Assembly (NCBI GenBank): GCA_918797485.1
Contig: CAKKNE010000006.1
Location: 2,170,001-2,234,000 of the forward strand
Reading direction: 5' to 3'
Length of the DNA: 64,000 nucleotides
Source: Pelagomonas calceolata
Lineage: Eukaryota
The notes under the pieces are model-generated. The model did not search any database and was not told where the DNA came from. It saw nothing but the letters and a program-made list of their open reading frames with translations. Positions 17,429-54,670 of this stretch are shown here, in pieces. The translations under genes and the position numbers were made by a program. Numbering within the stretch: the first letter of the stretch is position 1; every line of letters starts with the position of its first letter.

Positions 17429-18962
17429 TTACACAAAGGTCCCTGCGTCCGGACTTGCGTCCGGCGGCGCCGCGTCCGCGTCCGCGTCCGCCGCGGGCGA
17501 CGCCGCCCGCTTCGGCCGCACGGCCCGCGCCAGCGGCGACACGATCCGCTCGAGGGGCTGCCTTGCTAGGCCGCGCGCGACCTGGGACGTCTCTCTATGG
17601 ACGTCGGACACGTCGAAGAGCACGCGGCCGACGCCGACGCCCGGCGGCGCCCGCCCGACGCGCCGGTGGCGCCAGAGCCGCCGCTCCCGCCGCTGCACCT
17701 CGTAGAAGTCGCCCCAGGCCCCGAGCCAGCCCTCCGCCACCCGTCCGAATTGCGCCGCGGGGAAGGCCCAGGCGTGCAGTAGCGCGAAAAGCAGCATCTC
17801 GACGCACATTAATGTGGCTTTGATCGCCGACTGCACCGCGGGGTCTTTTGCTGGACGCGCGAGGAAGTAGGCGCTGATCCCCAGATCCTGGAAGAACGTG
17901 CCAAAAACTAAACCCTTGACTGCCACAAACTTCCAGAAGGGCTCCGCCGGCACCAGTATGTTCGACTTTTTGCACGTCGCGTAGTAGAACAAGACCAGAC
18001 AGTAGATGGCGTGGTTCGCCACGTTGAACTGCACGAAGTCGAGCCAGTTCTTGGGCGAGAGCAGGGCCGCCGTGACCTGTGTGGAAATCGACCAGTACGC
18101 CATCGAGCTGCCGCGGTCACGGCGACAACGTCGCGTCGATGGCGTGGGGCGCCCGAAATTCGATTTCCACACAGGCCGTGACCGAGGCGTCGTCCGAGCT
18201 CGCGAGGCTCCCCAACACGTCGACCAAACCATTCAACGGGGCGACCGTCGCATAGAGTAAAATGACGTAGCGGCACTGGTCGAAGAAGTCGGAAGTGTCC
18301 AGCCGCCAGGGCGCCCAGACGTAGGGCGACATGATAGGATGCGAGACAATCGGGTAGGAGATGTCCGGCGTCACTATCGGAGTATGTGTGACAGGCACGA
18401 CGTCCTCCGTCCGTAACGCGTTCTGGAGCACTTTATAAGGCGGCGCGTCGAAGTGGACTTCTAGATAAGTCGACATAAAATAAAAAAAGTTCAGCACCGT
18501 GTAGGCCTCGTAGCAGTCCCGGAGAGCCGCGGGGATCGACGCGAATTTCAACATGTCCGGCGCGCCGTGGATCGCCGCTAGGGAAAAAGCCAGCTCACAC
18601 AACGAACAGATCGCATAGACGGGCACCATCCACAAAATCCTCACCACATACACTTGGAGGACCGGCTGCCAGAAATTCGTGAGGTGCTGTCTGATACCAT
18701 GTATGGAAATCGGGATCGAGATGCCCGCGAAGATTAATGAGACGGGCAGCAGGAACTTGTCCGGCGTGGCCTTTCTGTAAGCTGCGAGCCAATAGAGCAT
18801 GGCCGGTAAGGCTGCCGCTAATAGGAGCATGATAAAAAGTACTAAACACACGTAGGTCGCCTTTTCCTTCACGACGTGCCGTCGCTGTAAGCGCTCATAT
18901 AACTCGTCATCATCTGTGTCGTCGTTCAGCGGTGCGCTGAGTTCCGTCGGGTCCGGCTCCAT
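17429..18962 (-). CDS. TMEM184: TMEM184/OST-alpha family transporter; exons 18962-18183 and 18076-17429 (475 aa)
   Basis: LQVYVVRILWMVPVYA, RDCYEAY, KFVAVKGLVFGTFFQ, LMCVEML. Removing the GT..AG intron 18077-18182 joins the two ORFs in frame. Confidence 0.9.
18069..18182 (-). mobile_element. Introner (MITE-like intron): 98-bp element 18077-18174, 15-bp perfect TIR, 8-bp perfect TSD
   Basis: GCCGTGAC (18069-76) CTGTGTGGAAATCGA ... TCGATTTCCACACAG GCCGTGAC (18175-82); inner inverted repeat ACGCCATCGA/TCGATGGCGT. Confidence 0.95.
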
Positions 18963-19155
18963 GGTTCTGCCAGCCGATGCGCGCCGCAGCCGCGCGGATG
19001 CTCTGTTTGACCAGGGTGTCTGAGAGCCCGCGGCTAAGGGGCGTAGCGCGAGGGCTCGTGGAATGAACTGAGAAGAAATAAATGACCCAGTAACTCGTAC
19101 AGGCCCGCAGGGAGACCACGGAGGCGCACTTTTGACTTTTGGCCTCCGAGCATAG

Positions 19156-19176
19156 CTAGCGCATGTAAGACACTAG
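19156..19176. promoter_or_regulatory. CTAG-N13-CTAG intergenic motif
   Basis: CTAGCGCATGTAAGACACTAG between divergent starts. Confidence 0.6.
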
Positions 19177-19438
19177 TCCGGCGCTGTATTCGCCTCCTGA
19201 GGCAGTATATCGACGGATAGAGGGCATAAAGCTGCCACACGCATCCCACGCGAGGCGCACAAACCTTTTGGGGCTGCCTCGACGCCACCGACGCGCGCCC
19301 AGCTGCCCCACCAAGAGCCCTGCCAAACAATACGCCTGTCGTAGCGGTGGGGAATATCCTTTGGGCTGCCCGACGCGATATATAGGCTGCAGAGTAAGCC
19401 AAGGCCAAGAATAGCTGCCAGAGCAAGCCAAGGCCAGA

Positions 19439-19915
19439 ATGTCAGACATCCGAGTGACCGTGCCACCCTTGGACGAGCTCAAGGAAGCCTTTGCGAAATT
19501 CGACACGGAAAGCTCGGGCGCGATACCGGTCCACGACCTCGGAGCATTATTGCGCTCCGTCGGCGTCGTCGAGCTCAAGGAAGATGACCTGCAGGCGCTG
19601 ATTAGTGAAGAGATGTTCGACAAGAATTTCGACCTGCCCGAGTTCTTAGCATTAATGGTCGAGATCGGCCACACGCTGCCCGCGCCCGGCACGGAGAAGA
19701 AAGAGCTGCGGAAGGCCTTTAAGGCTGCCGATTCTGACAAAGACGGCTACCTGACGCCCGACGAGCTGCGACAAGCGATGGACGGCATGGCCGCCGAGCC
19801 GTTGGGAGATGACGAGTTTCAAGTCATGCTGGATGAGTGCAGGAGGGACGCGGAGATCGAAGAAGGCGAGCCGATAAAAATCGACGCGGCGGTGCGGTTC
19901 TTCCTGACCTCATAA
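19439..19915 (+). CDS. Calmodulin/centrin-like EF-hand protein
   Basis: ELKEAFAKFDTESSG, ELRKAFKAADSDKDGYLTPDEL. Confidence 0.85.
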   Translation: MSDIRVTVPPLDELKEAFAKFDTESSGAIPVHDLGALLRSVGVVELKEDDLQALISEEMFDKNFDLPEFLALMVEIGHTLPAPGTEKKELRKAFKAADSDKDGYLTPDELRQAMDGMAAEPLGDDEFQVMLDECRRDAEIEEGEPIKIDAAVRFFLTS

Positions 19916-19963
19916 AATTGTATATGTGAGACGAGCACTTAAGGGGAGAAAAGGGACAAAAAT

Positions 19964-20389
19964 TCACTCCTCGGCGTCGCCCGCATCAGCCATCGCGCGC
20001 GCGTCCTCGCGCGCCTTCTTGCACGCGTCGTAGGCGGCCTTGCACTTCTCCTCGACCTCCTTCGCCTCGGCCGCGAGGCGCTCGGCCTCCTTGCACTTCT
20101 CGGTCACCGTCTCGCGGTCCTTGCGCTCGATGGCCGCGAGCGCCTCCTGGGACGCCTGCTGGGCCTGCTGCGAGAGCGACTCCGCCTCGAGCGCGTACTT
20201 CTGGGCCTCCTGGGCGCGCGCCTCGATCTCCTCGACGGCCTTCAACGACATGCCCTGGGAGAGGTCGGGCCGCGGGTCCTTGGCGAGGTAGGGAGACACG
20301 GGCGTCCAGTTGCGCCAGCTCGCGGGGTCGCTCGCCGGCGCGTCTGCGGGGGGGCGGTCGCGTCGCCGGGCGTTTGCGGTCGCGCGCAT
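19964..20389 (-). CDS. Hypothetical coiled-coil protein (5' end uncertain)
   Basis: 141-aa ORF, E/K/A-rich helical C-terminus with strong GC3; ACACAAATG start context. Confidence 0.65.
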   Translation of the reverse strand: MRATANARRRDRPPADAPASDPASWRNWTPVSPYLAKDPRPDLSQGMSLKAVEEIEARAQEAQKYALEAESLSQQAQQASQEALAAIERKDRETVTEKCKEAERLAAEAKEVEEKCKAAYDACKKAREDARAMADAGDAEE

Positions 20390-20996
20390 TTGTGTGTAGC
20401 AGCCGCGGCCGTGTAGAGACCGGCGTCATCGGGGCGGTTTCGCGCAGGTGCGTCTCGGCCGGCCGACGCGGCGCGCCGTCGTTGGAGTGCGCGTGCTGCC
20501 AGGTGTGTGTGGAGCGTCCGTTCGATCGCTAACGGCCGCGGCGCCGCAGGAGTTCGGGCGGCGGCAAACGAGGGTCCTAGTGATTGGAGCTGTTGGGCAC
20601 TGGTAGCCACCGGTCGGCATCGCGCTCGACATCTCTGCACAGCGGTGGTCTTTTAGCACTGCCCAGCTGTATGGAAAGGGCCCGAGGCGTGCTGATTTGC
20701 CAAAAACGCCGAGCGCTGAGCGGTTGGAGGAAAACCCGAATTGATTTGTTCGTTCGAAACCATCTCAATAATGAGTGTACAAGAGTGTTCTCAGCGCCGT
20801 CAGAGCGTGGCACCGCCGGAGAAAACCCGCATTCTCAGCCAAGCTTGCAAAAAGACTGCGCGGCATTGTCCATATCACAGCCGCGGTGTGCCCGCACGGC
20901 TGGTGTAGTAGTGCTACGTGTCGCACTGCTGCCACCACAACAGCTGGCGAGCCCTGCGCTGCCTACGAGCAGCACAGGCAGCAGGGCAGCTATAGC

Positions 20997-24926: not shown

Positions 24927-24976
24927 ATGTGACTCATCAACTTCATACGCCATCGCCGCGAATTCTAGAAGAATAC

Positions 24977-25789: not shown

Positions 25790-26719
25790 TTTGTTCTTTG
25801 TTTGCGTCGCGCGCTCGGCGCTGCACCGCAGCGCTGTGATGTTTGGCCTGTTGCGAGGGCGCTACGGCACCGGCGATTGTAAGCTCTCCCAGTCCGCTGC
25901 GGGCCGGCTCTGGGAAGTTGTACGACGCGCTCTTTGCGTGTGGTTACGCGTCTATAGACGTGTTTTGGTCGATTTGCGCCGGGGCCGCAAACTAGCGTGC
26001 ATAGAGACACTAGTGCGACGGAAAATCTGATTCTCGGCGGAGGTGTCTTGGAAGGCTCGTCAGAAGCCAGAATAGACTCTTGCGATTCTGTTGTCTGCAT
26101 TCGGCCGCGCCCAAAAGCTGAGTTTTGGCATAAGACGAGGCGCGAGGCAGCTGGCCACGCCGCTGCGCTGTGAAGTAAAGCACGGCGTCTAGGAAAGATT
26201 GTATTTGCGATTCGCTGCCCTCTACCTCCGAAACCGCCCCAGCGGGTGCGCTGAGGAGGCTGTACCGCAACCCTCACCGATTGGAGCCATTCTCTGCCGA
26301 GCGGCGCGGCGCGGGCTTGCGCGCTCTCTAACGGCGGCCCAATGCGCTGCTGCGCGCCGTGCGCTTCCGCCGGCGGGACTGGCGGCGGTACTGCTGGAAC
26401 CGCGGCGCGACCGGGTCGTGTTCCGCGCGTTCCGCTCAGTCAAAAGCCCAGCCCGAGCGTTGCGCCGCGGGCTCGCGCGCGCGCTGCTCCGGATGGCTCA
26501 CTCAAAAACGCCACCCGAACGGGGCGCCGCCGGCTTGTGATGCTCTCCGCGGCTCAAACCGCCTGAGGCGCCGCCGCCTCACTCAATTCCCGCCCTTGCG
26601 CCGCCGCCGATTGCTGTTGCCCCACGCGATGCCCCCCGCGCAGGTGAGAAGTCGACGCGACCGCTGCGCCGGTGACTTGAGTGCTAAACGTCGACGCCAC
26701 CGCGCCGACGACTTGAGAA

Positions 26720-27507: not shown

Positions 27508-28366
27508 ATGGCGCGACTCGTGTGGGCATGCAGCCTCGCACTCTGCGCAGGCTTCCAGCCGCCGCGCCTTACGCCGCCGCCGCGGCACACCATGCAGGCC
27601 GACGCGGCCAGCATCTTGGACAGCACGCTGTCGCTCGCCAACTCCGAGGAGTTTTTGGGGGGCATCGTCGGCTTCTTACCGCTCATCGCAAGACCCAGTG
27701 CGTAAATCATGACCTCACGCCATCGACGCGACGCCAGCTCGATGGCACGGCACACAGGCGATCCCCGGCGTGCTCGTCGGCATCCCGTTCCTCGTGTTCA
27801 ACCGCCTGAAAGACTTGGAAGGAGACGCCTACACGGAGACGGTCTTCACGGACAAGCAGCCTCCCCGGCGGCCCGGGGCCGAACCCGTCGTGCGAAAGAA
27901 GGACATCGACATGTCCTACGCGGAGCTCGAGCAAAAGTACGGCGAGGCGACGCTCTTCAAAGATGACGCGCCGCCGAAACCGCCGGTGAACGAGCCCTTC
28001 GCGCTGCCGGAATTGCCGTCGTTTCCGAGCTTCGGCGGCGACGCGCCCGCGCCGCCAAAATACGAGGCGCCACCTTCCCAACCGGAGGAGGAGTTCGCCC
28101 TCCCGGAGCTCAAGCTCCCTTCGTTACCATCCTTTCCGTCCTTCGGCGGCGGCGCCGCGGCGCCGCCGCCGCGATACGACGACGCGGCGCCGGCGCCGCC
28201 CGAGGAGGAGTTCAAGCTCCCCGAGATCTCCCTGCCGTCGTTCCCGAACCCGTTCGGCGGCGGCGCGCCGCCCGCGCGGGAGCCCGTCTTCGCCGACGAG
28301 GAGGAGGACGAGCCGGCGGCCGAGGAGCCGTTCAAGCTGCCCGAGGTGAAGTTTCCCTGGCAGTGA
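27508..28366 (+). CDS. Putative plastid-targeted single-TM protein with F-x-L-P repeats; exons 27508-27687 and 27758-28366 (262 aa)
   Basis: Signal + CAG-F transit motif; GC..AG intron removal gives the continuous hydrophobic stretch GIVGFLPLIAIPGVLVGIPFLVF; repeats FALPELPSFPSFGG. Confidence 0.75.
27688..27757 (+). mobile_element. Decayed introner-family intron (GC-AG, 70 nt)
   Basis: GCAAGACC vs GCGATCCC (5/8); ends CAGTGCGTAAATC..CACACAG; core CACGCCATCGACGCGACG..CAGCTCGATGGC shared with the 18077 element. Confidence 0.85.
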
Positions 28367-30520: not shown

Positions 30521-33500
30521 TCAGCCCGAGCGCTGGAACCGCGGAGACCGGCGTGGCGAGCGCCGCGGCGGCGGCGAGTTCTCCCGCGTTTTGATGGGTG
30601 TCTTGCGCGAACCCGGCGTCTTCGACCGCTTCCGGTTCGCGCCCGCCGAACTTCGTAATCGTGAGGACAGCGGCGGCGACGGCGCGCGCGGCGACTGGGG
30701 GTTCGGCACCGCCGCCACGAAGGCCGCGAGCTTCGACGGCGACTTTCGTGATTGAGACCGCGGCGACAGCGCCGGGGAGGTCGGGTTCGGCACCTTGGCC
30801 ATAAACGCCGCAAGAGGAGAGGTAGGAGCAGCTTTCCGCGGGGACCGCGCCGGCGACTCGAGGCTCCTCCGGCTGAAGGCGCCGAGTGCCAGCTCCGGCG
30901 ACGCGGACGCGGCAGGCTCGGGCGACCGTTTCGACGCCCAGGCGTCGAGCGCGCCGAGCGCGCCGGCGGTGTCCGCAGGCGGCGTCTTGGGCAGCGACGG
31001 CGCCGCCGACGCCCAGGCCGAGAGCGAGAGCGGCTGCGAGCTGGGCTCCGTCTTTGTTGGAGACGGCGCCTCCTCCGTGGACGCGGGCGACGGCTGTTCC
31101 TCGGCCACGGGCGACGCCACGGGCGTCGGCGCGTCGCAGTGCTCCCGCAACGCGTGCGCCGTCTGGACGATGCGCCACAACTTCAACCGCCGCGCCACGA
31201 CCCGCCACCGGCCCGTCAGGTGGTGCTTGCGGCAGGCGCCCAGCAGCTCCGCGTCGAAATCCGACGCGACCGTCGGGGCCGCCGGCGCGACGGTCGACGC
31301 CGGGACGACGGCGCCGTCGGCGAGCGTCACGTTCACGGACTGGGGACGCGGCGGCAGGGGCGGCGGCACGGGCGGGCACACGGAGAGCCGTGTCGCGTCG
31401 ACGGCGAAGACCTCGCCCTGGGCCCGGTGCGCCTCCAATTCGTTCTGCAGATCTTGTAAACGCACCTCCAATTGATCGGTTTTGGAGGCCTTGGCCTCGG
31501 CCACGTCCAAGGCGCGCTGGAGCTTTCTCAATTGCAGTCGCAGGTCGTCGGCGTCGTCGTTCGCGCGGATGTAGGCGCGCTGCGTCCCGATCGTGCCCTT
31601 GAGGTCGCGCACGGTCTGGCGGAGCTCCTTGCACTCGTCCTTGTGTTGTTCCGACGACTGTCTTCTCAATTCCGCCTCGGCGCGCGCCGCTGATAATGCT
31701 TCGGCGTTTCGCCGTTGTTCAGCCTCGGCGTCGCGTCGCGCCGCCACCTCGGCATCGCGCCGGGCCGCCGCCTCGGCGTCGCGTCGCGCCGCCGCCTCGA
31801 TCGCCTCCACCGCATCGGCCCCGGCGCCTTCCCGCGCCAAAGATAACCGCGCGGCGCTCAGCGCGCCCTCGACCAATCCATCGGCACAAGCGTCGCGCGC
31901 GCCGTCCACGATCGTGGCGACGCGCTGCGTGAAGCCCGCCGCGTCGTCGGCTAAAGCCGCCGCGGCCTGGGCCGCGTCGGCCGCGGCGCCGCGCGACGCC
32001 GCGAGCGCCGCCTCGGCGCGGTCGGCGCGCCGCGCCCGCTCGGCCGCGTCGGCCTCGGCCCGCGCCGCGCGCGCCTCGGCGGCCGCGCACCGGTCCCGCG
32101 CGTCGCCGCCGTCCGCGAGCGCCGCCTCGGCGCGCGCCGCGCGCGCCAGCGCGTCCTCGGTCGTTTTCATGCGCGCCGCGCCTGCGTCGGCGGTGTTGCG
32201 TAATCGACGCGATGGCGTAGCAATGGGGGACGCCGGCACCGAACCGTCGCTCGCGTTCTGTTTAAGAGCCGCCTCGGCCGCCTCCGCCCTTCTACAGAGA
32301 GCGCCGACGGCGTCCAGCGACGCGCGCGGCGGCTTCTCCCTTTCATCACGCAAGACGTTGCCCGTCGTGCGCCGCCGCCTTCTCTTAAGCTCGGCGATCG
32401 CGTCGGCGTCGCCGACGCTCAGCGCCAGCTTCTCCAGCGTCTTGATGCGTCTAGCTTTCTCCTCGAGCTTCGCCGCTTGGGCGGCCACGGCGCGCGCCAA
32501 CTGCAGGTTCTCCCTCTCTAATCTCTCGGCCCGCGCGGCCGCCTCTGGATCACTTTTCTTCGGTACGACGGTGTTCGGCACGATGCGGATGGACGCGCGC
32601 GCCGCCCTTCTTCCAAATTGGAGCGTCCTTCTGGTTTCCTCGAGCTGGGCCGTCCCCGGCGCGACGCAGCAGATCAGTGCTAATTTAGCCCGTCCTTGTA
32701 ACGTGGGCTGCAGCAACCTCGTCAAAGTCGCGTTGCGAAAACTGGGTTTCAGGCGGTCGCCCATCTGCCTCAACACATGGTTTAAGGCACTCAACGACTT
32801 GTTGATGCCGACGCCCTCGTGGAACCGCGTTTCAGGCGCGCTCACCCAGGCCCGCTGGCCGTTCTGCGAGTGCTCTCCCGACTTCCTTCTTTTAGGCTTC
32901 TCGGACCCCGCCAGGTCGACCACACAGAGCGTCGCCTCAAACCTTACACCTCGGACGTCCGTCTCGACGCGCAGTCTTAATACAGCGTGGCTCCGCGACG
33001 ACTTCGCGTTCAGTCGCGTCGCCCCGCGTTTTCGGTTCCGTTCACCCCTATTGACGACCGCATCCAGGGCGTTCGGCGAGCCGATGCGCACCTCGTGCGC
33101 GCCCGTGACGCGGACCACCGGCTTGTCCTTGACTTGTACTGAGGACCTCGCGTCGAGTAAATCGGTGAGCTTCTCGTCATAGACCTCAAGATACGACGCC
33201 CACACTCGAACACCGCCCTCGGCCGTGCCCTCGTCGAAGACCTGCTCGCAGGCGAGCCGCATGACGCCCTGGGTCGTGTGCGTCTTGCCCGACGCCGTCT
33301 GGCCGTAGGCGACGATCGTGCCGGACCGTCCTACCAATAAGCCGCCCACGACTTCCCGGCAACTCCTCTCGTAGACTTGTTCCGTATGTACATCAGTACC
33401 ACACACCGCGTCGAACCTATAACGCTCGCCGGAGTGCTTGCCGGCCGCTTGCGTGATCGTCGTTTGATCGACGGTCCAGCCCGCCTCGCCGTCGGCGCCG

Positions 33501-36859: not shown

Positions 36860-38320
36860 ATGGGCAAGAACCAGGGCGCCAAGAAGGGCACAGTAGTACA
36901 TTTAGCCCATTTAGTCGCGAACGACAAGGCGCACATCCCCGACCGGCCGCAGGAGCGCGCTCCCGACGACCAGGGCTTCTTCCGGCGCGACTTCCGGGGC
37001 TACGGTTCGGACAGGCCGCAGGGCGATCGACCGACTTTTAGAAGTGAAGGTGATGACGACTGGCGGCGCGGTGGCGGCGGCGGCGGCGGCGGCTTCGGGG
37101 GCGGCGGCGGTTACGGGGGAGGCGGCGGCTACGGCGGCGACCGAGGCGGCTACGGCGGCGGCGGCGGCGGCTACGGCGGAGGCGACGCGCGGGGCTACGG
37201 CGGCGGCTCGTCCGGCGGCGAGCGGCCGCGCCTCAACTTGACGAGGAGAGGCGACTCCGGCGACGCCGGCCCGGCCAAGGTCGCGCCGTACGCGGCACCG
37301 CCCTCATCAGGCGGCGGCGGCGACAAGTGGGACAACATGTTCGGAGGGGGGAATAGAGGACCGCAGAGCGACCCGCCGCCGCCTTCTAGGTATGGCGCCG
37401 GCGGCGGCGAGTCGCGGTACGGCGGTGGTGGCGACGCGCGGGGAGGCTACGGCGGTCCCTCTCGCTACGGCGCCGGGTCCAGTGATAGACCGTCGGGCAT
37501 GGGTCGTTATGGTAGCGGAAACCGCTACGGCGCTTTACAGACTGGAAGTTCAGCGCCGGCGCCTAGAAAGGAAGAATTCCCGACCATGGCCGCCGCTACG
37601 CAAAAGAAGGAAGAACCTCAACACGTCAAGGAAGCTAGGTTAGCGATGGAGAAGGTCAAGCTCGAGAAGCGTCGATTGGCCGAGGAGGCGCACCGCAAGG
37701 AGCAGGAGGCCGCCGCGGCCAAGAAGAAGGCCGAGCGCGAGGCCGCCGAGCAGGCTGAAGCTGCGGCGAAGCAGAAAGCTTTAGAGGACGCGGAGAAGGC
37801 GCGCGTCGCGGGTCTGGAGTCCGCGAAGAAGCTTGAAGGGCTCACGGGCCAATCATTAGCTGATGCTGTAGCAAAACTCCCGGACAAGCCGAACGCCGAC
37901 GCCTTTGCCACGGCGCGCTTCGGTAAACATGGGAGCGACGTTTCGTGGCTGAAGACCGAGGCGCCCGCGCTTAAAGTGGTCGCGCCCTCTACCGAGGAGC
38001 AGGCTTCTCTCTTGTTAGCGACGCAGCGCCACCTCGCGTCCCTCGAGTTCCCGAAGGACGCGAACGGCAAGGGTCTCATTCAACAGGCCTTCAAGTTCCT
38101 GTTCCTCTGCGAGGTCTGTGATGTGGAGGCCTACGAGGCCTGGCGCGACGCCGACGATGCTGTGTCCGAGGCCGTGCCCGGGAAGATCAAGGCCTTGACA
38201 CAAACCACGGAGTTCTTCGCGTATCTAGATACGATCGATGAAAGCGATTCTGATGAAGAAGGCGACGAGGAGGAGGACGAGGAGGAGGACGAGCTGGCTC
38301 CCGCACCCGTCCCCATCTAG
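36860..38320 (+). CDS. Translation-factor-like protein: Gly/RGG-rich eIF4B-like N-terminus + C-terminal W2-like domain
   Basis: DDWRRGG, ERPRLNL, coiled coil, EAYEAWRD..PGKIKAL..FFAYLD followed by an acidic tail. Confidence 0.7.
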   Translation: MGKNQGAKKGTVVHLAHLVANDKAHIPDRPQERAPDDQGFFRRDFRGYGSDRPQGDRPTFRSEGDDDWRRGGGGGGGGFGGGGGYGGGGGYGGDRGGYGGGGGGYGGGDARGYGGGSSGGERPRLNLTRRGDSGDAGPAKVAPYAAPPSSGGGGDKWDNMFGGGNRGPQSDPPPPSRYGAGGGESRYGGGGDARGGYGGPSRYGAGSSDRPSGMGRYGSGNRYGALQTGSSAPAPRKEEFPTMAAATQKKEEPQHVKEARLAMEKVKLEKRRLAEEAHRKEQEAAAAKKKAEREAAEQAEAAAKQKALEDAEKARVAGLESAKKLEGLTGQSLADAVAKLPDKPNADAFATARFGKHGSDVSWLKTEAPALKVVAPSTEEQASLLLATQRHLASLEFPKDANGKGLIQQAFKFLFLCEVCDVEAYEAWRDADDAVSEAVPGKIKALTQTTEFFAYLDTIDESDSDEEGDEEEDEEEDELAPAPVPI

Positions 38321-38384: not shown

Positions 38385-40373
38385 TCACATGCGCGCGAGC
38401 TGGAGCTGCACTTCCGCGAGCACATCTTTGAGGTCGGCGACCGCCTCCTCGCATTCGGCGCGGTCGGTCAAAGCGTCGAGCCTCGACCGCGCGTCGCGCG
38501 CTATTTCGTGGCGCGTGGACGGGTCGGCGCGCTCCGCCGTCACGCCGGCCGCCCGCGCGAAGGCGTCGACCCGGAACGGCCCGCGCCGGGTCCCTCGGGC
38601 GACCTCCGCGTCGTGCGCGTACCTTCTAATCTGCGTATCGAGATACTTGGCCTGCTGGTCGTTGGTAGCTAAATTGAAGAAGACCGCCATAGGTATGGTG
38701 GCCGTCCAAATGCCCGACTCCTTTTCGCCGCGCTCCGCGATCAATTTCAACGTAAAAACCAAACTACTCCGCGTCGCGTGCTCCGGACACAGCAAGACCG
38801 TCGCCACCGTAAACACCTCGCGTACCGCTAAGTCCTGCGCCTCGTCTTTTATCGGGTGCCCAGCCAGTCTGAACATCGTGTAGTGCCACCGCTGCTCGAA
38901 GAAGCGCTCATTAAAGACTTCGAGGGCGACCAGGTCGTTCTTGTCCGCGTAGGTGGTCGACTGATACCAGAGCTCGTCCATATCCAATTTGAGCTTGCGT
39001 CCAGTGCGTTCGTAGTCGCCGAGCAGCCACCACCGCTGCGTATCTAACTCGGCCGGCGTCCCAATCCTAAGCGACTCCTTGAATCCAACGGAGATAAGAT
39101 GACCCTCGGCGGCGCGGATATGGTCCGACAGTATAGTGAGCATGCCGCGGATCGCGTGGCGCCCCTGCCTATTATCGCTCGCATCAAATAAATCCAGCTC
39201 CTCGACCTCGTCGTCCACATCGAGCCCGGCCAGCGCCTGGAGCTCCTGCACTGCTTCGTCCTCCTCGTCGTCCTGCTGCATCAATACGGGGACCTGCGCG
39301 GAACGACGTGGTTGCGAAACGGTCGCGGCGCCCTCACGAGACGCGTAGACCCCTTCGCGCGGCCGCGTCGGCAGCGTCTCGGTGGCGTGGTAGCGCGTCG
39401 ACGCGCGTCGCGGCGACCGCGTCATGTCGAAGCACTTTCCGCGCGGGGTACTGACGCGCGGCCGCGCCGCAGCCTTCCGTCGGGCCGCCGCGGCGTCGCG
39501 GGCTCCTTCGAGCCGGCCCGACGCGCCTATTCCCCAGTGCGACTCGCTGCCGTCAACGCGTACCTTTGTCTGCCGGCCGCGCTCGTCCGGGACCTTGTAC
39601 TCGTCGAGGCGCCCGTCCCCTCTCGGACCGGTCCAGGGCAAGCCCTTCTTCGAGTCCTTCGCCCCCTTCTGCATCCAGGCCGGCCGGCTCTTGAAGAAGG
39701 CCGACGTGTCCCAGTCGCCTTTGCGAAAGGTGAGGGCGTTCACGGCGCCCTGCTTCGCGCACTTGTCTTCGGCGCCCTTCGCCTCGCCTTTCGCGCCGTA
39801 GTCAAACACACATCGCTCCCACCTGTTCCTGAAATCGCAGTGTCGCAGATGACAATTTTGAAGGGCTCGAAACTGCGACGGCCCCACGTATCTAGTCCTA
39901 AAAATCTGCAGCAGCGCCTCTTCGTCCACGGGATCGGCCTCGAGCAGCGCTTGGACGTCCTCTGGGAGTCCGGAGTGCCAGTCACTTGCCCGGGCCGCCG
40001 TGCCTACTTCATTCATAGACTTTTGGCCTCTTGCGCGGAGTGCGTCTCTGTCAAAATCGAGCTCCCAGGCTCGAACTTCTAGGCCATTCACCGTTTTTAA
40101 AGGTCTCATAGGGACTCGCTCTTCTGCTACTAGGGCGCAGGTCAGGTCGACTCTTTTGCCCGCCCTGTACTCGCCGTCTTTGATGCGGAACTCGATTCGT
40201 GCAGCTCCGGCGAAGAACGTGCCGTCTTCCTTCTTAATCCTAAGTCCCAATTCTCTTGGCGTCGTGGTGTCGACGGTCATTTCATCGTCCTTGCGCACGC
40301 GTATGGGGCAGCGCGGGCCGCCGACCACAGCACCTCTGTATGCGGGCGCAGCTTTTTTCGGCATCTCTTGCAA
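38385..40373 (-). CDS. Orphan hypothetical protein (608 aa if the in-frame intron 39294-39455 is removed)
   Basis: 662-aa ORF with coding-like composition; no family recognised. Confidence 0.7.
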   Translation of the reverse strand: MQEMPKKAAPAYRGAVVGGPRCPIRVRKDDEMTVDTTTPRELGLRIKKEDGTFFAGAARIEFRIKDGEYRAGKRVDLTCALVAEERVPMRPLKTVNGLEVRAWELDFDRDALRARGQKSMNEVGTAARASDWHSGLPEDVQALLEADPVDEEALLQIFRTRYVGPSQFRALQNCHLRHCDFRNRWERCVFDYGAKGEAKGAEDKCAKQGAVNALTFRKGDWDTSAFFKSRPAWMQKGAKDSKKGLPWTGPRGDGRLDEYKVPDERGRQTKVRVDGSESHWGIGASGRLEGARDAAAARRKAAARPRVSTPRGKCFDMTRSPRRASTRYHATETLPTRPREGVYASREGAATVSQPRRSAQVPVLMQQDDEEDEAVQELQALAGLDVDDEVEELDLFDASDNRQGRHAIRGMLTILSDHIRAAEGHLISVGFKESLRIGTPAELDTQRWWLLGDYERTGRKLKLDMDELWYQSTTYADKNDLVALEVFNERFFEQRWHYTMFRLAGHPIKDEAQDLAVREVFTVATVLLCPEHATRSSLVFTLKLIAERGEKESGIWTATIPMAVFFNLATNDQQAKYLDTQIRRYAHDAEVARGTRRGPFRVDAFARAAGVTAERADPSTRHEIARDARSRLDALTDRAECEEAVADLKDVLAEVQLQLARM
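39294..39455 (-). mobile_element. Probable introner-derived in-frame intron (162 nt)
   Basis: Minus strand GTCAGTACC CCGCGCGGAA ... TTCCGCGCAG|GTC; 9/10 inverted ends. Confidence 0.65.
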
Positions 40374-40463
40374 CGCGAGGCAACAGCAATAATTGAGTAG
40401 GCACGTAAGGTGCCAGATATGGATTCTTCTCCGGGGTGCCCAGGCTTTTGGAAATTGTGCGAG

Positions 40464-40485
40464 CTAGCGGCCAGTAAGACACTAG
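40464..40485. promoter_or_regulatory. CTAG-N14-CTAG intergenic motif
   Basis: CTAGCGGCCAGTAAGACACTAG about 90 bp upstream of the start at 40373. Confidence 0.6.
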
Positions 40486-41253: not shown

Positions 41254-42545
41254 TTAGTAGCGGCCGAACTTGCGCTGCAGCGCGAGCGCCTGCTTGACAA
41301 ATAAACGAACGCTCGCCCACGCGGACCCGGTGTATTTCTTTTTGAAATTCTGCCGGGTCTGGAAGTCGAAGCGATTGTTGAGGGGGGCGGGCATGAGAAA
41401 AAAATTCTCGAGGTCGTCGCAGATCGTGCCGAGGATGTGGTCGGTTTGGAAAAACCGATGCTTGACGAGGTTCTTGATGGTGTCCTCGGAGAGGCCGTAG
41501 TCGAACGCGTTGAGGGCCATCTTCTCGAAGAAGCCCTCGTAGCCGAAATTCTCGTTGAGGTAGCCCTTGAAATTGTCCCGCCACGTGCGGATGCTCCGGC
41601 GGGCCCCGCCGAATGCCGCGCGCGCCTGTGAGTGCCAATCCAAGTTCAATGTCAAGTTCAACGAAAAAAATTTACTCTCGTGCGAAACGGGCGACGGCCC
41701 GCCTCTCTCCTGCGGGCTCCTGCTCGTGTCAGCAGGATAGTCGAAGAAACAGGAAAAAGACGCGGGCGCTCACTTCCTCGTTCTCCTGGGCGTAGCGGTC
41801 GTCGGCCATGTGGAGCGCCCCCTTTTTGGGGTTGCGGATGACATTGGCGGCGTCCGCGAAGGGGATGGGCTTGCCGTTCGCGCCGAACAATTTGAAGCCC
41901 TTCTTCCTACATAACTTCCTCAAACCCTCGTCGAGGGCCTGCACCATGGTGACGTCGCCTTCCGTGTCGAGGATGACCTGCTCGCGCTCACACTCCGCTC
42001 TCCAGTGCCCCATGCCCTTCCACTTGAACTCGCCATCTTTCATCCGCGCGGCCACGTCCAGGAGCGCGTTTCGGCGCCGCGCGCGCCGCGCGCCGTTCTT
42101 CGACCTACGTGATGCGAGTGTAGAGAACGTGAGCGTAGGTCGTCGTGACGCCGTAAATCCACTGCTTGAACGCTTCTAAGAGGGCCTTGGCTTTTTCTTT
42201 TTCGTCCATGCCCTCGTAACAGATCGCGACTGTGAGCTCAAAGTAGCGCGCCGCGCCCTGGCGCTGCGCCTCTATGACGACGTAGGACCTCGTCTTCGTG
42301 TCGTCCCGGACCGGCCTTAATTTATTTCCTTTCGGCGTCTTAGCATACTGCGGTTTTGGGCCGTGCCACGCCGTCGCGCCGTCGACCATGTCGACCTCCG
42401 TCAGCTCTTGAGAGTTAACCATGCCTTCGGTCTTCGTCTGCTTGCGCGTGCGCTTTTTTTCCGGCGACGCGCGCGCGCCGCCGCGCGTCTGGTCGCGGTT
42501 CTTGTCGGCCTCCTCGCGGCGCGCTTTCGCCAGTACCGAATGCAT
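41254..42545 (-). CDS. Orphan protein with C-terminal HNH-like motif; exons 42545-42163, 42104-41774, 41625-41254 (361 aa)
   Basis: Two GT..AG introns join three ORFs in frame; QTDHILGTICDDLENFFLMPAPLNNRF resembles DHI..N..N. Confidence 0.7.
41626..41773 (-). mobile_element. Probable introner-derived intron (148 nt)
   Basis: Donor octamer GTGAGCGC vs downstream exon GCGCGCGC (6/8); ends CCGCGTC..GATTGGCACTCACAG. Confidence 0.6.
42105..42162 (-). mobile_element. Possible introner-derived intron (58 nt)
   Basis: GTGGATTT + ACGGCGTC ... CACGTAG; same 8-nt + (C/A)CGGCGTC layout as the 44690 and 54309 introns; removes a stop and fixes the frame. Confidence 0.55.
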
Positions 42546-44546: not shown

Positions 44547-45123
44547 ATGGCCTCCTGCCTCTTCCCACCGAACCTGTCCGACGGACCCACAAATTTACCG
44601 CTCGCCGAGGACATCGAGAAGAACCCGACGGTCTTTGGGGAGCTGCTGCGCGGCGAGGCGCCCATCCGGAAACTGCACGAGTGCGACGCGTCGCGACCCG
44701 GCGTCCTTGGAGCGCCTGCGTACGCCATCGACGAGTCCGTGCCTGCTCGATGGTGTGCCACGTAGGTATCTCGCCTTTCGCAACGTGAAGAACTATGCAC
44801 CGCTTGCTGGGTTGGTCATTCCAAAGCGGCGGCGGCCGCAGGACCCCGACGGCTTGAAAAAGGCCGACGTAGCGCTCTTGGAGGACATGCGGCGCATCGC
44901 CCTCGAGGTGTGCCAACGGGAGCAGCCCGAGGCCTTCGCGGCGAACGACTACTGGCTCCGCTTCCACCGAAGACCCTGGCACAGTGTCGATCACCTCCAC
45001 CTGCACGTGCTCGCGCCGGCCTCCAAAGTATCGAGCTGGACGGCGTTCATATTCCTGGCGGGCTCACCGTGGAGCCTCGACGCCGACGCTCTTTTAGAGA
45101 AGCTCCGTCGAAGCCGAGAGTAA
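44547..45123 (+). CDS. HIT family hydrolase (HINT3/aprataxin-like); exons 44547-44689 and 44766-45123 (166 aa)
   Basis: Spliced LHECDAYLAFRNVKNYAP..LVIPK; FHRRPWHSVDHLHLH histidine triad. Confidence 0.85.
44690..44765 (+). mobile_element. Decayed introner-family intron (76 nt)
   Basis: GTCGCGAC CCGGCGTCCT..ACGCCATCGACG..GCTCGATGG..CACGTAG; an intron here is required to restore the HIT frame. Confidence 0.75.
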
Positions 45124-45149
45124 ATGTTTGTTGTCATACAAGTCGGTCC

Positions 45150-47873: not shown

Positions 47874-48209
47874 TAGTCCCTTCCCTTGCTTGTTAACCCC
47901 CGAAGTAAGTCACATACTACTCCTCGGCTCGTGTGCTGCCGCGCGCCGGCGGGAAATGAGAGCGAGCACCCGGGGGCGACGGCGTATGAGGGCTGGGGAC
48001 GGTCGCGAATGCGGTCGCGTCGGCTCCGCGCTAGGTGGCCTAGCCGAAGCAAAGCAAAAGAAGTTCATTTTCCGAGAGCTGTGTTGTGAGACATCCAGGG
48101 CAGGATGTGTATGGATACACCCGTCAGGCGTCGTGCGGGGCCGTTGCGAAGGGCAGCAAACGAAGGGCTGGCCGATAAAAAGCCGCCAAGCGCACACATA
48201 TTAACCAAG

Positions 48210-48932
48210 ATGGCTGCCCCGCGGCAGCCGTTGCGGCCGCGCAACGTCGACGACGCGGCGCGGCCGCCCCTGAAGCCGCGCGGCGTGGACACGACGCCCC
48301 AAAAGCTGCGCGCACGACACGAGACGGATGATGAGCGGCTGCGCGACGCGGACGACGACAAGACTGATGAGAGGCTCCCCCAGAAACGGATCAGGCTCCT
48401 CCCCAAGAAACGTATCAGGATGCTGCCCGCGCGCGACGAAAAGTGGACCGCGCCTTTACATTCGCCGGAACGCGACCGCCCGCCGGACCTCGACGCGAGC
48501 ATGGACGGCAGCATCGTCATGGCCCTCGCGACGCCAACACAAAGCTCACCGGTCGTGGAGGAGGCGCCGACGGAGCCGCCGCCGGCGTCGATGGGCGCCG
48601 TGGCCAAGCTCGGCTCCCTGGCCGCGCTGGCAAAAGTTCTGAGGAAGCCCTTCGACGCGGCCACTCAACATGTTTTCGACCTCTATAATAGGACGTGGCG
48701 CGACTTCGACGCGAGCGGTCGGGCGCCGCCGGCGAAACCCGGCGCCGAGCTATCGGAGGACGAGGTTAGAAGGTTACGCGGCGGCCTCGCGGTGCCCATC
48801 GTCGATGCGCCGGTATCGGCCGTAAAGCCGCCGCCGGCGCCGCCGCGCAAGTTCCGCCTGAAGAGTCTGTTGAAAGTCTTCCGGTGGAAGAAGTCGTCGC
48901 GCATCGCGCCGGCACCCGCGCCTAACACCTAG
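48210..48932 (+). CDS. Hypothetical Pro/Arg-rich protein
   Basis: ATG in CCAAGATGG context; 240-aa ORF filling the gap. Confidence 0.55.
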   Translation: MAAPRQPLRPRNVDDAARPPLKPRGVDTTPQKLRARHETDDERLRDADDDKTDERLPQKRIRLLPKKRIRMLPARDEKWTAPLHSPERDRPPDLDASMDGSIVMALATPTQSSPVVEEAPTEPPPASMGAVAKLGSLAALAKVLRKPFDAATQHVFDLYNRTWRDFDASGRAPPAKPGAELSEDEVRRLRGGLAVPIVDAPVSAVKPPPAPPRKFRLKSLLKVFRWKKSSRIAPAPAPNT

Positions 48933-48937
48933 TAGTA

Positions 48938-51900: not shown

Positions 51901-52597
51901 CCCGCCGCGCCCCATAATCTAATTCCTTCCAGGCCTGGTCCTCGCACGGCAAGTCGCTCCCGAGGCACGCCCACGATTTCGCATTCTGGTTGTCGTCCGT
52001 GGCGGGGCACGGCCCGGTGCCCGACGAGGCATCGTAGTTTGCGGTGGAGCCGAAGGTCACTTCCTCACACTTCTTGAAGGGCGTTTCCTCGCAGTCATCA
52101 TCAGAAGTGCATCGGTCGCCGTTAAAGACGCCCCCGCAGAACTGGGCCTGTTCGCCTTGGGCCGTCGTGCCTTCCCGATAACAGTCCAATTCATAGGCCC
52201 ACACATCATTAAAGTACAATCCGACATTTATGGGATTTTTGCAGACCTGTTCGCCCGTGTCCGGGTCCGTCGTGCACATCTCCGTTTTTATTGGAGATTT
52301 ATCATAGCTCACGAAGTCGATGGTCCCTGAACTAATCTTGATCTCGTAGGTCTTGGGCACGTGCTGCTTGAAGATCTCGTTCGACCGGCCGCCAAACAAC
52401 ACTATTTTCGTCGTGGCTTTCTCCGTCTCCGTCGCCGGCTTGTGGTGTAATACTAACGAGTGTCCTCTGCGCGCGCCCGGTCCTCTCTCTAACCCCCAGA
52501 GCTCCTTCCACTGCTGCGTCGCGTCGGCCTTGTACTCCCAGCGCTGCCAGGCGTTTGCCGTCGTGGCTACCGCGAGGAGCCTTGCGAGCAGCAGCAT
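48938..52597 (-). CDS. Secreted/surface Kelch-repeat and EGF-like repeat protein
   Basis: Signal MLLLARLLAVATTANA; repeated FGG..DxW Kelch blades; CPNNCNNQGNC..YYGADC EGF-like repeats; hydrophobic C-terminus. Confidence 0.88.
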   Translation of the reverse strand: MLLLARLLAVATTANAWQRWEYKADATQQWKELWGLERGPGARRGHSLVLHHKPATETEKATTKIVLFGGRSNEIFKQHVPKTYEIKISSGTIDFVSYDKSPIKTEMCTTDPDTGEQVCKNPINVGLYFNDVWAYELDCYREGTTAQGEQAQFCGGVFNGDRCTSDDDCEETPFKKCEEVTFGSTANYDASSGTGPCPATDDNQNAKSWACLGSDLPCEDQAWKELDYGARRGGCRYVLGREVCTHPSERWRHGASMFDDSTMLVYGGFSQRCEDYCDDLWAFDVRDNTWMEIYEVGKFAFGDAPGKRWRFSLVSDGQRYPCPKALEEQNQDEIECGRFYIFGGFRLWHGFARDNSEDNRWRSNEELPDGGYMDDLWVYNKRLLNPDEPMPTSSAGLGLWRNYTGKATCVDEPGATWEGRDDQNCEVEWPTARAGHTSALDAKNGGVYVFGGYTTFFPYLSTDGPGSGWGAAAKPNAKGFIPFPDYPYYLNDLWVYNLTTGYWTLLVPLSSDVPAPRTDMSMVLDMGYCRSSVDDDGACFGPMLIVFGGYNGSHHFDDTWLFDTRKTRWLEKRQQVHPLWPPGCTDDDEIIANSSCFLLDYARPVRPDGLVQAQRHDLSDLYDTIHVVVVSKTDMAVDSTKKDSPPLVGTSVAPAQLVGGAAACASEADEGCAGFDWWSLDPNNTKMVHLLNMAVCSHDRMMSCRVDGDCSFHEASSTCIKKSKYIEFSAFPFYGIVDKDGPRPDPQVDKPKFGDPIVKYAATGPNQWVTGPRYWDEDWLKDHFRRRDCGTKQFDDRECSFWSQDLSRDVAFLENYTVSYNKSLPEIKNGKKFRQDFEAYRGVYYRRCTSVYGDATRGGTLGWHPKAPDGLNGRANGSVLIPQKRRRAPGWDGCRDTCFGVHPNEPGLYPGERQKFPDRFECPSNASLILDTGLQYLRPNQRSDHAAILVPHLGRWTTNTRALGEIYMFGGVGYGVEQKQTTDHTFPSVVLDDMWRLGVHDCPNNCNNQGNCSYGFCQCHRGYYGADCSNISCPGDFCYVDQDTNEQVCQHCCQAGYNHTEHDKYQVDVPRVPCTFASHRQDGSFGESNGICDGFGTCQCAPPFINDDCSIRDCDHNCSHRGHCSVEFPVSRCICDPGYYGKHCQYQVCLNNCSYPNGLCNHTTGLCTCEMIYSPYQNWRPYQRWGGEDCSFLWAYCAACRGRPSTWWVLILSIAWLRR

Positions 52598-52882
52598 CTC
52601 TCCTCTATGCTCCTCTGTTGCCCGTCGACGAAGGAGGTCTCGCGGGACGCCTTGTGTCTCTATTGGTAGCGCCTTGGGCGGCTGGTTTTGCGCAGAGCTT
52701 GGGCTGCCCGGCGGGCGCGCGGGGGCGGCGCCGCCGGCGGAACGCGCAGCCGAGCACGCGTCTGGCCGCGGGAGCCCGCGTACGCGTCCTTTACGGCCCA
52801 CAGCGCACCACCAGCGGAATTGCGGGCTAGAGTCTTACGGGCCGCTAGGTCCGCACGGCTGCCCCTCCTCACTGTTTCGACC

Positions 52883-53590
52883 ATGCCCTCCATCAGCCAG
52901 CGCATGGCCCAGAGCGAGGGCCGCCCGATTTCAACAAGACGGCCCTCCTCAACAACGGCGCCCGACGCGCCGCCGACGAGCCGCCAGCCCTTCGTGCCCA
53001 CCACCGACGCCGGCGCCTGGGGCGGCTTCCTCGACGCGCAGGCGCACAAGCCGGGCGGGACGGCGCGGCGCCAGAAGCACGCTCCCCAACCGCCGCCGCC
53101 GCCGCCGCCGCCGCCTCCCTCAAAAAAGTGGGACCGCTACGTCGACGCCGCAAGTGGCAAGCCCTACTGGCACGACGCTCATTCGGGAGAGACGACCTGG
53201 GACGAGCCCGTGACGCCACCGCCGCCGCCGCCGCCGCCAAGAGAGCGCTGGGTCGAGTTGTATGACGACGCGAGCGAGCGCCCGTACTACCACGACCCGG
53301 CCTCCGGTAGCGTTCGATGGGACGAGCCCGAGACGATTGACGAGCACGGGTCGGCGCTCTTCGCTCTCTCAGGCAAGGCCGTGCCGCCGCCTCCATCAGA
53401 AGAGGCGGAGGAGGCGCCGCCCGCGCGGACGCTCCGCCGGCCGTCGAACCCGTGGCAGAAGAAACCGGCCGCGCCGGTGGTCGACTCATCGAGCGAGTCG
53501 GAGGCAGCCGATGATACGGACCTCGCGGCGCGCGTGGCGGCGCTGGAGAAGACGGTCGCGGCGCTCGTGCGGCGCCTGGCGCGTTCTTGA
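52883..53590 (+). CDS. Tandem WW-domain, poly-Pro protein
   Basis: WDRYVDAASGKPYWHDAHSGETTWDEP and WVELYDDASERPYYHDPASGSVRWDEP. Confidence 0.85.
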   Translation: MPSISQRMAQSEGRPISTRRPSSTTAPDAPPTSRQPFVPTTDAGAWGGFLDAQAHKPGGTARRQKHAPQPPPPPPPPPPSKKWDRYVDAASGKPYWHDAHSGETTWDEPVTPPPPPPPPRERWVELYDDASERPYYHDPASGSVRWDEPETIDEHGSALFALSGKAVPPPPSEEAEEAPPARTLRRPSNPWQKKPAAPVVDSSSESEAADDTDLAARVAALEKTVAALVRRLARS

Positions 53591-53875
53591 CCCCCGTGGC
53601 CCCTTCAGCTGAGTAAGTGGGTAGCTGTTACTTGGATTTTGGGAGCGCTAGCACCTTTCAGCTGATGCAACAAAACCCGTACAAGCTGCAGAGCGCCTGT
53701 CCAGGTCTGCAGCCTGTGCTACAGGACAAGCGGAGCAGTAAGAAGTTGCATTCGTTCAGGTCATCATACGTGCGCATTCGTTCCGTTTGAGTTAGGCGCC
53801 TGTTAGCTGTATAATCGATCGTGCACACCGGAGAGCACTCTCCCAAACGCCATCCGTGCGACATTGCGAGAACGC

Positions 53876-54670
53876 ATGGCTCGACACGTCGTCGCCGCGG
53901 CCCTCTGCTTCGCCGCTGCATGGGCATTGCTGCATAACCAACGCACACGCAACCTACCACTGGCCATCGCCGCGAAAAAGACGGTCTGGACCTTCGACGA
54001 GGCGCGCGACTACGCGCGGTCTTTCGGCTTCGGCTCCAAGGACGAGTACGTCGAGTACCGCTGCCCCGGCGCGTATGCGCTACCTCGAAACCCGGTCGAG
54101 GCGTTTGGTGAGCGCTGGACGTCATGGGAGGACTACCTCGGGCTTCGTACAGGTGTCGATGATGCGGAAGTCGTGACGCGGCCGGGCTTCGAGCAGGTGC
54201 TGTTCGTCGAGATGGGCTGGGGCGCCGACCAGCACGGCCAGAACGCGACCAAGGCGTGCGTCCGCGCGGCTCGGAATGCTATCGAGTTTAACAGCATCCC
54301 GTCGATCCGCGCGGAGCCGGCGTCCTCGACTCGTCGACGCCGTCGCGCGCGTCGCGTCGATAGCGTCGGGGGGGGGGGACGCCGTCGCCGCGTGTTGCGT
54401 CGACGGCGCCACACTGACCATGCGAACGCAGGCGCGCTCGTGCCCAATGGCTACGAGGGCATGAAGCTGGCCGTGGACCTCGCCGTGCCGGAGGCGTACC
54501 ACGAACATATCGACGTCGACGCCGTCGGGGCGGTCTTCCCCTACGGCGCCGTCTCAATACGACTGCAGCCCGGCGGCGCGGAGTTCTCCTCGGGCATCGC
54601 GATCCCGGCCATGGGTGATAAAGGAGACGCGCTCGTCGTCGCGCTGTGCTGCGTGACCGTGGGCTACTGA
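53876..54670 (+). CDS. Lin0512-family domain protein with N-terminal integrase-repeat-like unit; in-frame intron 54309-54431
   Basis: FDEARDYAR..LPRNP..WTSWEDYLG; FVEMGWGADQHGQNATKACVRAARNAIEFNSIP..VFPYG..VTVGY. Confidence 0.8.
   Translation: MARHVVAAALCFAAAWALLHNQRTRNLPLAIAAKKTVWTFDEARDYARSFGFGSKDEYVEYRCPGAYALPRNPVEAFGERWTSWEDYLGLRTGVDDAEVVTRPGFEQVLFVEMGWGADQHGQNATKACVRAARNAIEFNSIPSIRAEPASSTRRRRRARRVDSVGGGGRRRRVLRRRRHTDHANAGALVPNGYEGMKLAVDLAVPEAYHEHIDVDAVGAVFPYGAVSIRLQPGGAEFSSGIAIPAMGDKGDALVVALCCVTVGY
54309..54431 (+). mobile_element. Decayed introner-family in-frame intron (GC-AG, 123 nt)
   Basis: GCGCGGAG vs GCGCGCTC (5/8); CCGGCGTCCT..GAACGCAG; contains GTCGCGTCGATAGCGT (family core, reverse orientation). 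Confidence 0.75.

Follow-up and report, generated by a model that had tools for sequence, protein, structure and literature searches.

Several introns of a Pelagomonas calceolata locus probably follow a pelagophyte-type introner design with at least two end types

Where new introns come from has long been debated; introners, that is, introns made from transposable elements, are the best documented source. A 64,000-nt stretch of the Pelagomonas calceolata genome (contig CAKKNE010000006.1, positions 2,170,001 to 2,234,000; called the window here, and numbered from its own first letter) raises this question for a whole set of neighboring introns. The preliminary description of the window had proposed seven coding introns and had taken all of them for an age series of a single introner design, in which a duplicated octamer serves as the splice donor and then decays. 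The analysis reported here makes it fairly probable that several of the introns do follow a pelagophyte-type introner design, but that the copies in the window belong to at least two end types and are of mixed ages. The design itself, in which an 8-nt duplication supplies the donor, has already been published for pelagophytes and dinoflagellates; therefore, the window adds no new mechanism. Introners of Aureococcus anophagefferens were reportedly described by Huff, Zilberman and Roy in 2016.

Splicing of the proposed introns was assessed with RNA mapped to positions 17000–56999, consisting of one raw poly-A run (X21) and the contigs of three studies (X4, X10, and X12). For six of the seven introns, RNA joints coincided with the proposed borders to the base. 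These were 27688–27757 on the plus strand (GC..AG joint; 45 raw reads and three contigs), 39294–39455 on the minus strand (three contigs), 41626–41773 on the minus strand (one contig and one read), 42105–42162 on the minus strand (one contig of one run only), 44690–44765 on the plus strand (GT..AG joint; five reads and three contigs), and 54309–54431 on the plus strand (GC..AG joint; eight reads and three contigs). In the introns starting at 27688, 39294, 44690, and 54309 (introns are referred to by their first coordinate from here on), the joint lay exactly where the duplication provides the donor with its initial dinucleotide and the element the acceptor with its terminal AG. The exception was 18077–18182, for which no joint was present among the RNA joints listed. 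However, two RNA contigs each had a piece beginning exactly at 18175, where the second duplication copy begins; owing to the 8-nt repeat, this is the start expected for the alignment of a spliced molecule. Furthermore, two long reading frames could be joined only by removing the 106 nt of this intron, and its removal reunites a Solute_trans_a domain (profile positions 4–142 and 165–266; Pfam). Thus, all seven proposed introns are genuinely spliced, 18077 on indirect support. The seven are not the full set, though: RNA also revealed two introns in 5′-untranslated regions (UTRs) on the minus strand, one at 20344–20610 (267 nt; 727 reads plus contigs in three runs) and one at 55361–55675, which uses a major donor at 55675 (205 reads) and a minor one at 55593 (23 reads). 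A likely further intron is the candidate at 32182–32244 (minus strand; 63 nt, in frame), situated in the tail of a kinesin gene.

The clearest introner of the window is 18077, a 106-nt intron on the minus strand in a gene for a Solute_trans_a (Ost-alpha-like) protein. On the coding strand, its layout is GTCACGGC / CTGTGTGGAAATCGA...TCGATTTCCACACAG / gtcacggc. The intronic copy of the duplication, GTCACGGC at 18175–18182, is identical at all eight positions to the exonic copy at 18069–18076, and the element enclosed by them (18077–18174) consists of inverted ends at 18077–18091 and 18160–18174 and a core hairpin at 18097–18145. The inverted ends are perfect over 15–16 nt, 16-nt arms being 100% complementary, and the RNA is predicted to fold into a single long hairpin (z −4.56). 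The GT donor is provided by the initial dinucleotide of the upstream repeat copy, the acceptor by the terminal dinucleotide of the element. The intron matched the profile of its family, designated family 1, with an E value of 8.5e-9 in nhmmer, and a metagenome locus (L017) with 95.8% identity over 71 nt. It is read as a recent family-1 insertion, presumably young in relative terms.

That this element is one of many was evident within the window and beyond it. Its core word, ACGCCATCGA, occurs five times in the window where 0.24 occurrences are expected, and the hairpin pattern of the core is present in three introns (18077, 27688, and 44690). The preliminary description had seen the core in four introns; it is exact in these three, but 54309 contains degenerate versions only. 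Thousands of RNA reads that derive from other copies stack on 27716–27746 and 18119–18176, with flanks unlike those of the window. A metagenome library was built with a single 18-nt word from the core of the 18077 element and comprised at least 123 loci with 200-nt flanks each, part of which are evident chance matches in bacterial-looking DNA. BLAST searches with 18077 and 27688 matched all of the at least 123 loci listed, to which the counts below refer. Multiple copies were found for 18077, 27688, and 44690 only.

When both ends were required to have at most three mismatches each to CTGTGTGGAAATCA, 58 family-1 copies with both inverted ends were recovered from 55 loci; the remaining 68 loci, where no such pair of ends was present, are truncated by the flank, carry a second end type, or are chance matches. 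Full-length copies measured ∼203 nt (26 aligned copies of 170–215 nt; these 26, of 57 that could be oriented, were used to build the nhmmer profile), so that together with the 8-nt octamer introns of ∼211 nt result. A length near 200 nt is, together with insertion into nucleosome linkers, a characteristic of pelagophyte-type introners. The family-1 copies in the window are short deletion derivatives, as are its other introners (58–162 nt). In the 8-nt register, the flanks were identical in 18 of the 58 copies and matched at seven of eight positions in another 14, whereas identical flanks were encountered once each at 7 and 5 nt and never at 9 or 10 nt. The anticipated identity ending sharply at 8 nt was therefore seen, albeit in related copies rather than across the window. 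Of 44 copies in which five or more of the eight positions match, 43 have an octamer beginning with GY on one strand, and the donors of the 35 single-orientation copies with at least 5/8 matches were GT (27) or GC (8). Regarding orientation, 21 copies fitted the plus strand only, 22 the minus strand only, 10 both, and 5 neither; introns are thus formed from the element in either orientation, and the two are used equally. In three metagenome loci (L019, L121, and L012) the core hairpin is present twice in tandem, which points to the core as a module that duplicates inside the element. A viral vector was also considered and rejected: the 16-nt end word was found in 13 viral contigs, all of them chance matches in AT-richer DNA, and the single short nhmmer match (E 5e-4, positions 1–69) contained neither the core nor a second end.

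Membership of the other window introns in family 1 was less uniform. Significant nhmmer scores were obtained only for 18077, 27688 (3.5e-7), and 44690 (1e-3); those of 54309 (E 0.064) and of a fragment at 9814–9845 (E 0.059) were marginal, and the BLAST results agreed with this assignment. Intron 27688 (70 nt) is an internally deleted family-1 copy, with CAGTGCGTAAATCA at its 5′ end, the core hairpin, and GCACACAG at its 3′ end. The score of its 5′ end against the position weight matrix (PWM) of family-1 ends was 16.1 (empirical p<1e-4), the last 7–8 nt of the 3′ end are retained, and alignment to its relatives revealed two internal deletions. Over 32 nt of core, it is 100% identical to metagenome locus L038. 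Its octamer, GCAAGACC, matches the exonic GCGATCCC at five of eight positions, and the intron is read as a little-diverged copy with an altered donor octamer. At the 3′ side of introns, the PWM was uninformative because every acceptor already reads CTG/CTA; self-complementarity of the two ends was tested there instead. For 39294 (162 nt, in frame), this test identified inverted ends, CCGCGCGGAA.. and ..TTCCGCGCAG, located 9 nt past the donor and complementary at 10 of 12 positions (null P 4.5e-4). The end variant CTGCGCGGAAATC is also present in the metagenome copies L016 and L032. The intron contains no core, its duplication matches at 3/8, its nhmmer score was not significant (E 4.1), and no BLAST similarity to the loci listed was found; judged by its ends, it is likely a diverged relative of the CTGCGCGGAAATC variant. 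Self-complementarity of the ends was at chance level in 42105, 44690, 20344, and 55361. The marginally scoring fragment at 9814–9845 consists of two tandem copies of a core arm (CCATCGATGGCG..CATCGATGGCGTGG), is located just upstream of a sulfotransferase open reading frame (ORF) and outside the confirmed introns, and may be the remnant of an intergenic insertion.

A C(T/C/A)G-type end 8–9 nt past the donor had been attributed to all seven introns. It is present in six of them but not in 42105, which has ACG/CGG there. For three introns (42105, 44690, and 54309), a shared (C/A)CGGCGTC motif had been reported in addition and a second subfamily suggested. Both statements were borne out: the motif occurs at an offset of exactly 8 nt in all three, at a background of 4.4e-4 per position, and the subfamily, characterized by the end CCGGCGTCC, gained a fourth window member, 32182, as well as relatives in the metagenome. 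With a background frequency of 3.9e-5 per position, CCGGCGTCC forms the 5′ end of 44690, 54309, and 32182 at this same offset, and 42105 has ACGGCGTC there.

Four window members are counted in this second family, family 2. In 44690 (76 nt, phase 2), which splits the HIT/DcpS_C domain of its gene such that the downstream exon starts from HIT profile position 16 (Pfam), CCGGCGTCC is combined with the core hairpin TACGCCATCGACG..CTCGATGGTG; the duplication matches at 3/8. Intron 54309 (123 nt, GC donor, in frame) splits a Lin0512_fam domain (2–37 and 46–114; Pfam), has a degenerate core and a duplication matching at 5/8, and contains the inverted pair CGGCGTCC..GGACGCCG over intron positions 10–76, which forms a hairpin in the predicted fold. 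At 54318–54384 (plus strand), CGGCGTCC pairs with GGACGCCG ∼60 nt downstream, with 11 consecutive G in between; by its appearance, a small but complete unit with inverted ends is nested within the first 76 nt of this intron. Intron 42105 (58 nt) has a family-2-like 5′ motif, aligns with family-2 members, and shares the 3′ end CACGTAG with 44690. The candidate 32182, found by listing all CGGCGTCC sites in the window, reads GTTCGGTG/CCGGCGTCC..TACGCCATCGCGTCGAT..GACGCAG/GCGCGGCG, with a duplication matching at 5/8. One RNA contig, from X10, has a piece whose end falls exactly on 32244, in line with splicing, a contig of X4 retains the stretch, and no joint was present among the RNA joints listed; this intron may be removed from some transcripts only. 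In the metagenome loci L007, L024/L092, L095, and L107, the same order recurs: GT, a variable spacer of 8–9 nt, CGGCGTCC, the core common to both families, and an end of the CGCGCAG type. On comparison of these sequences, family 2 is real and shares its core hairpin with family 1. The duplication of family 2 is deduced solely from the fact that the 8–9-nt spacer is constant in length and variable in sequence.

Three introns were left unassigned to either family. Intron 41626 (148 nt), which interrupts the same gene as 42105, is unclassified. Its duplication matches at 6/8, but against the low-complexity exon sequence GCGCGCGC. Its ends form a marginal inverted repeat (8/9) in a different register, of which the donor is a part (GTGAGCGCC / GGCACTCAC+AG; null P 0.013 per intron), one arm lying directly at the donor and the other 2 nt before the acceptor, and the predicted RNA fold is strong (z −3.3). 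Possibly, this intron represents a different type of element with a donor of its own. Intron 20344, the acceptor of which is located upstream of the start ATG, has CAGTGC at offset 8 (PWM p 0.046), the end CCCGCAG, and a duplication matching at 1/8. Intron 55361 ends with CGCACAG, is followed by an exon beginning with GT, and belongs to a gene for a ribosomal protein (uL5/L11-like). This gene is highly expressed and has a poly-A site near 54787, as seen from a T run in loose read ends.

The observed splice sites, inverted ends, 8-nt duplication, copy number, and use of both orientations are consistent with the following course of events. A multi-copy inverted-repeat element of ∼200 nt would have given rise to at least 18077, 27688, and 44690. 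The element likely moves as DNA, presumably by cut-and-paste transposition involving a transposase, and would duplicate 8 target bases. The GT or GC that opens the duplicated octamer would then act as donor and the terminal CAG of the element as acceptor. Splicing would remove one octamer copy together with the element, so that the mRNA would be as it was before the insertion. Family 1 would be distinguished by its CTGTGTGGAAATCA ends and family 2 by its CCGGCGTCC 5′ end, on a common hairpin core, ACGCCATCGACGCGACG..CTCGATGGCGT. Introns 44690, 54309, 42105, 32182, and 39294 would be older or more rearranged relatives. Miniature elements of the hAT type have an 8-bp target duplication and short inverted ends beginning with CAG/CTG-like sequences. 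Assigning the elements described here to the hAT superfamily would be a guess, one that the 8-nt duplication fits; a literature search on introners with hAT and an 8-bp duplication in pelagophytes returned no paper.

The matches between donor octamer and downstream exon that had been reported for the seven introns in order (8, 5, 3, 6, 4, 3, and 5 of 8) were exact on recount. In a permutation test in which each donor was paired with the exons of the other introns, all nine introns together gave 37 matches (null 28.6, P 0.02). Several results weigh against the introner reading at this point. The expected excess of octamer identity over shuffled pairs vanished without 18077 (29 matches versus 25.3 ± 3.6, P=0.19), and at octamer positions 3–8 there were, again without 18077, 16 of 48 matches versus 14.2 (P=0.33). 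Eight family-2 sequences, four from the window and four from the metagenome, match at 2–5 of 8 positions, approximately the chance level. Introns 41626, 20344, and 55361 showed no similarity to the at least 123 loci in BLAST or nhmmer searches, nor was a BLAST or nhmmer match to these loci obtained for 42105. A library built with one 18-mer favors young copies of one core, and other families are invisible to it. Among the 38 window ORFs, no transposase domain and no autonomous partner were found. Finally, that the elements are those published for Aureococcus and Pelagomonas is deduced from their design, length, and lineage and is probable at most. The demonstrable duplication in the window is that of 18077 only. 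Still, one or more introner hallmarks were significant in seven of the ten window introns; the other three have none.

The reading closest to that of the preliminary description holds that every intron has the same duplication-donor design at a different age, the octamer decaying or being reshaped until the intron looks ordinary. There is evidence for it in the junctions themselves. All ten introns end with CRYAG (chance 0.19 given YAG, P 6e-8), including the unmatched 41626, 20344, and 55361 (3/3), and the exon after the intron begins with GY in nine of ten cases (chance 0.16, P 7e-7), including two of these three. Only one of the ten upstream exons ends with AG, an asymmetry that a donor supplied by the duplication predicts. 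Likewise, the spacer between donor and family-2 end is 8–9 nt and variable in sequence in all eight copies. However, a set of ten introns is too small to tell descent apart from a preference of the species for certain splice sites. One design for all is contradicted by the presence of at least two end types, by the different register of 41626, and by the lack of family similarity in 41626, 20344, and 55361.

The idea of an age series fared no better when duplication identity was compared with divergence, which it had been supposed to track. Intron 27688 has a fully identical core over 32 nt, yet its duplication matches at 5/8 only, and 41626 reaches 6/8 without any family match. Across the 58 copies, the number of end mismatches was uncorrelated with that of duplication matches (rho −0.15, p 0.27), in a sample that is biased toward young copies since it was selected by a perfect 18-mer. 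Duplication identity is, thus, not a simple age clock. The proposed drift of the octamer toward a better donor was upheld in part. In three of the seven mismatched GC-donor copies (27688, L011, and L120), the intron copy has A at +3 and the exon copy G, and two of them, 27688 and L120, read GCAAG. This is a hint of GC-donor repair toward a stronger donor, from an underpowered set of changes that are not polarized. The mismatches of GT donors, on the other hand, displayed no trend toward the consensus. Moreover, neutral decay that brought the octamer down to chance level would have erased ends and core as well, yet these are still visible in 27688, 44690, and 54309. A single age series is therefore rather doubtful. 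The broader statement that most introns here are fossil transposons is plausible. Its furthest extension, according to which nearly every intron, including those of the 5′-UTRs, descends from introners, the C-R-Y-A-G / G-Y junction is their fossil, and GC donors were repaired to GCAAG, can be entertained only tentatively, with slightly better prospects than the age series.

At the other extreme, only 18077, 27688, and 44690 would be derived from transposons, the remainder would be ordinary introns, and CCGGCGTCC, CRYAG, and GY would reflect splicing signals or GC-rich composition. It is true that significance in nhmmer was reached by these three introns only, that duplication identity elsewhere is at chance level, that CGGCGTC-like words are common (114 sites in the window), and that the family-2 copies are without a duplication. 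However, it would then have to be a coincidence that three introns have the rare CCGGCGTCC at an identical offset and a fourth has ACGGCGTC there. The succession of motif, core hairpin, and CGCGCAG end recurs in independent metagenome loci, motif and transposon core are found together in 44690 and 32182, and the ends of 39294, inverted at 10 of 12 positions, correspond to a variant known from true copies. This restriction to three introns is consequently improbable. Least probable by far is that the hairpin core (ACGCCATCGA..TCGATGGCGT) is a functional RNA or protein-binding module kept in introns by selection: it is the best conserved part, is shared across end types, is doubled within one element in L019 and L121, and forms a stable stem in the predicted folds of 18077, 27688, and 44690, but its apparent conservation is circular because the library was selected on it, no Rfam family matched in the window, 27688 and 44690 fold no better than shuffled sequences (z −1.4 and −0.7), and 39294, 41626, 42105, 20344, and 55361 lack it.

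The reading preferred here, a pelagophyte-type introner design with at least two end types, can be compared with known systems. In Aureococcus anophagefferens, the element carries one splice site and the second one is taken from the duplication, which is 8 nt long (GHN6) and used in either orientation (bioRxiv 10.1101/2020.10.14.339549). Two families with inverted ends and a length of ∼199–200 nt are listed for this species, together with short families of 67–77 nt, one of which has 33% GC donors (PMC9860276 Suppl. Table 6). The elements described here resemble these in the 8-nt GHN6 duplication, the use of both orientations, the inverted ends, and the element length of ∼200 nt. They differ in that two of the seven window introns have GC donors, compared with 2–3% in the two large Aureococcus families, and in that the window contains the short deletion derivatives only. 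In the searched text of PMC9860276, wording on decay or under-counting of old introners was not found.

For Pelagomonas calceolata itself, a GC content of 63%, 0.45 introns per gene, and a peak of intron length at ∼210 bp have been published (PMC9481584), as have 956 putative introner elements with GT or GC donors, AG acceptors, and conserved inverted ends (PMC9481584 Suppl. Note 3). The ∼211 nt resulting from a full-length element plus its octamer correspond to that peak, and the copies analyzed here have the same donors, acceptor, and inverted ends. In the part of the survey text available, neither a duplication length nor a second end type was found (PMC9481584). Under the survey's rule, copies that are short, deleted, or diverged, such as 27688, 44690, and 54309, would likely be missed.

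A similar arrangement is known from the dinoflagellate Polarella glacialis, the introner classes 6, 8, and 10 of which have an 8-nt GHN6 duplication and for which later changes of donor bases were inferred from comparison of the intron copy with the exon copy (bioRxiv 10.1101/2020.10.14.339549). As described there, the donor is formed by the duplication's 5′ end and the acceptor by the end of the element, both orientations occur, and the inference of donor changes equals the idea of drift put forward for the window. The lineage is unrelated, however, its GC content is different, and GA donors are common; sequence similarity is not expected. Introners of Micromonas pusilla are likewise short, non-autonomous elements with inverted ends that provide one splice site and take the other from the duplication, but the duplication is 3 nt long, the donor resides in the element, and the acceptor stems from the duplication (PMC11282704). 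Going by this account, the Micromonas design is the mirror image of that of the window family, with its 8-nt duplication, donor from the duplication, and acceptor from the element, and a Micromonas-type introner was therefore rejected as a candidate.

The window surrounding these introns has a GC content of 58–73% and is gene-dense, with mostly single-exon eukaryotic genes (among others for a subtilase, an ion channel, TBP, PsbP, kinesin, TyrRS, a Cu-ATPase, and WD40 proteins). Scans of the whole window for tRNA genes and Rfam families gave no match. Two further places attracted attention during RNA mapping. Eleven RNA reads start at 40459 and have ∼119 letters to the left that do not match the window, and all four runs show T rather than A at position 40473; an upstream exon outside the mapped stretch or a difference in assembly or strain could account for this. 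At 37132–37184, reads and contigs of four runs step back by 12–48 nt, with loose ends on both sides, which suggests a difference in the length of a short tandem repeat between the window and the sequenced strains.

The published figures amount to an introner share of ∼13% (956 elements versus ∼7,500 introns, the latter calculated here from 0.45 introns per gene and 16,667 genes). The fact that seven of the ten window introns have an introner hallmark, compared with ∼13% in the survey, means that the transposon-made share may be much underestimated. This possibly under-counted share, the second end type on a shared core hairpin, and the apparent repair of GC donors are leads that can be tested. 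If nearly all introns were indeed derived from introners, the whole intron complement of this alga would be transposon-made, and the ageing of introns would be readable from one genome.

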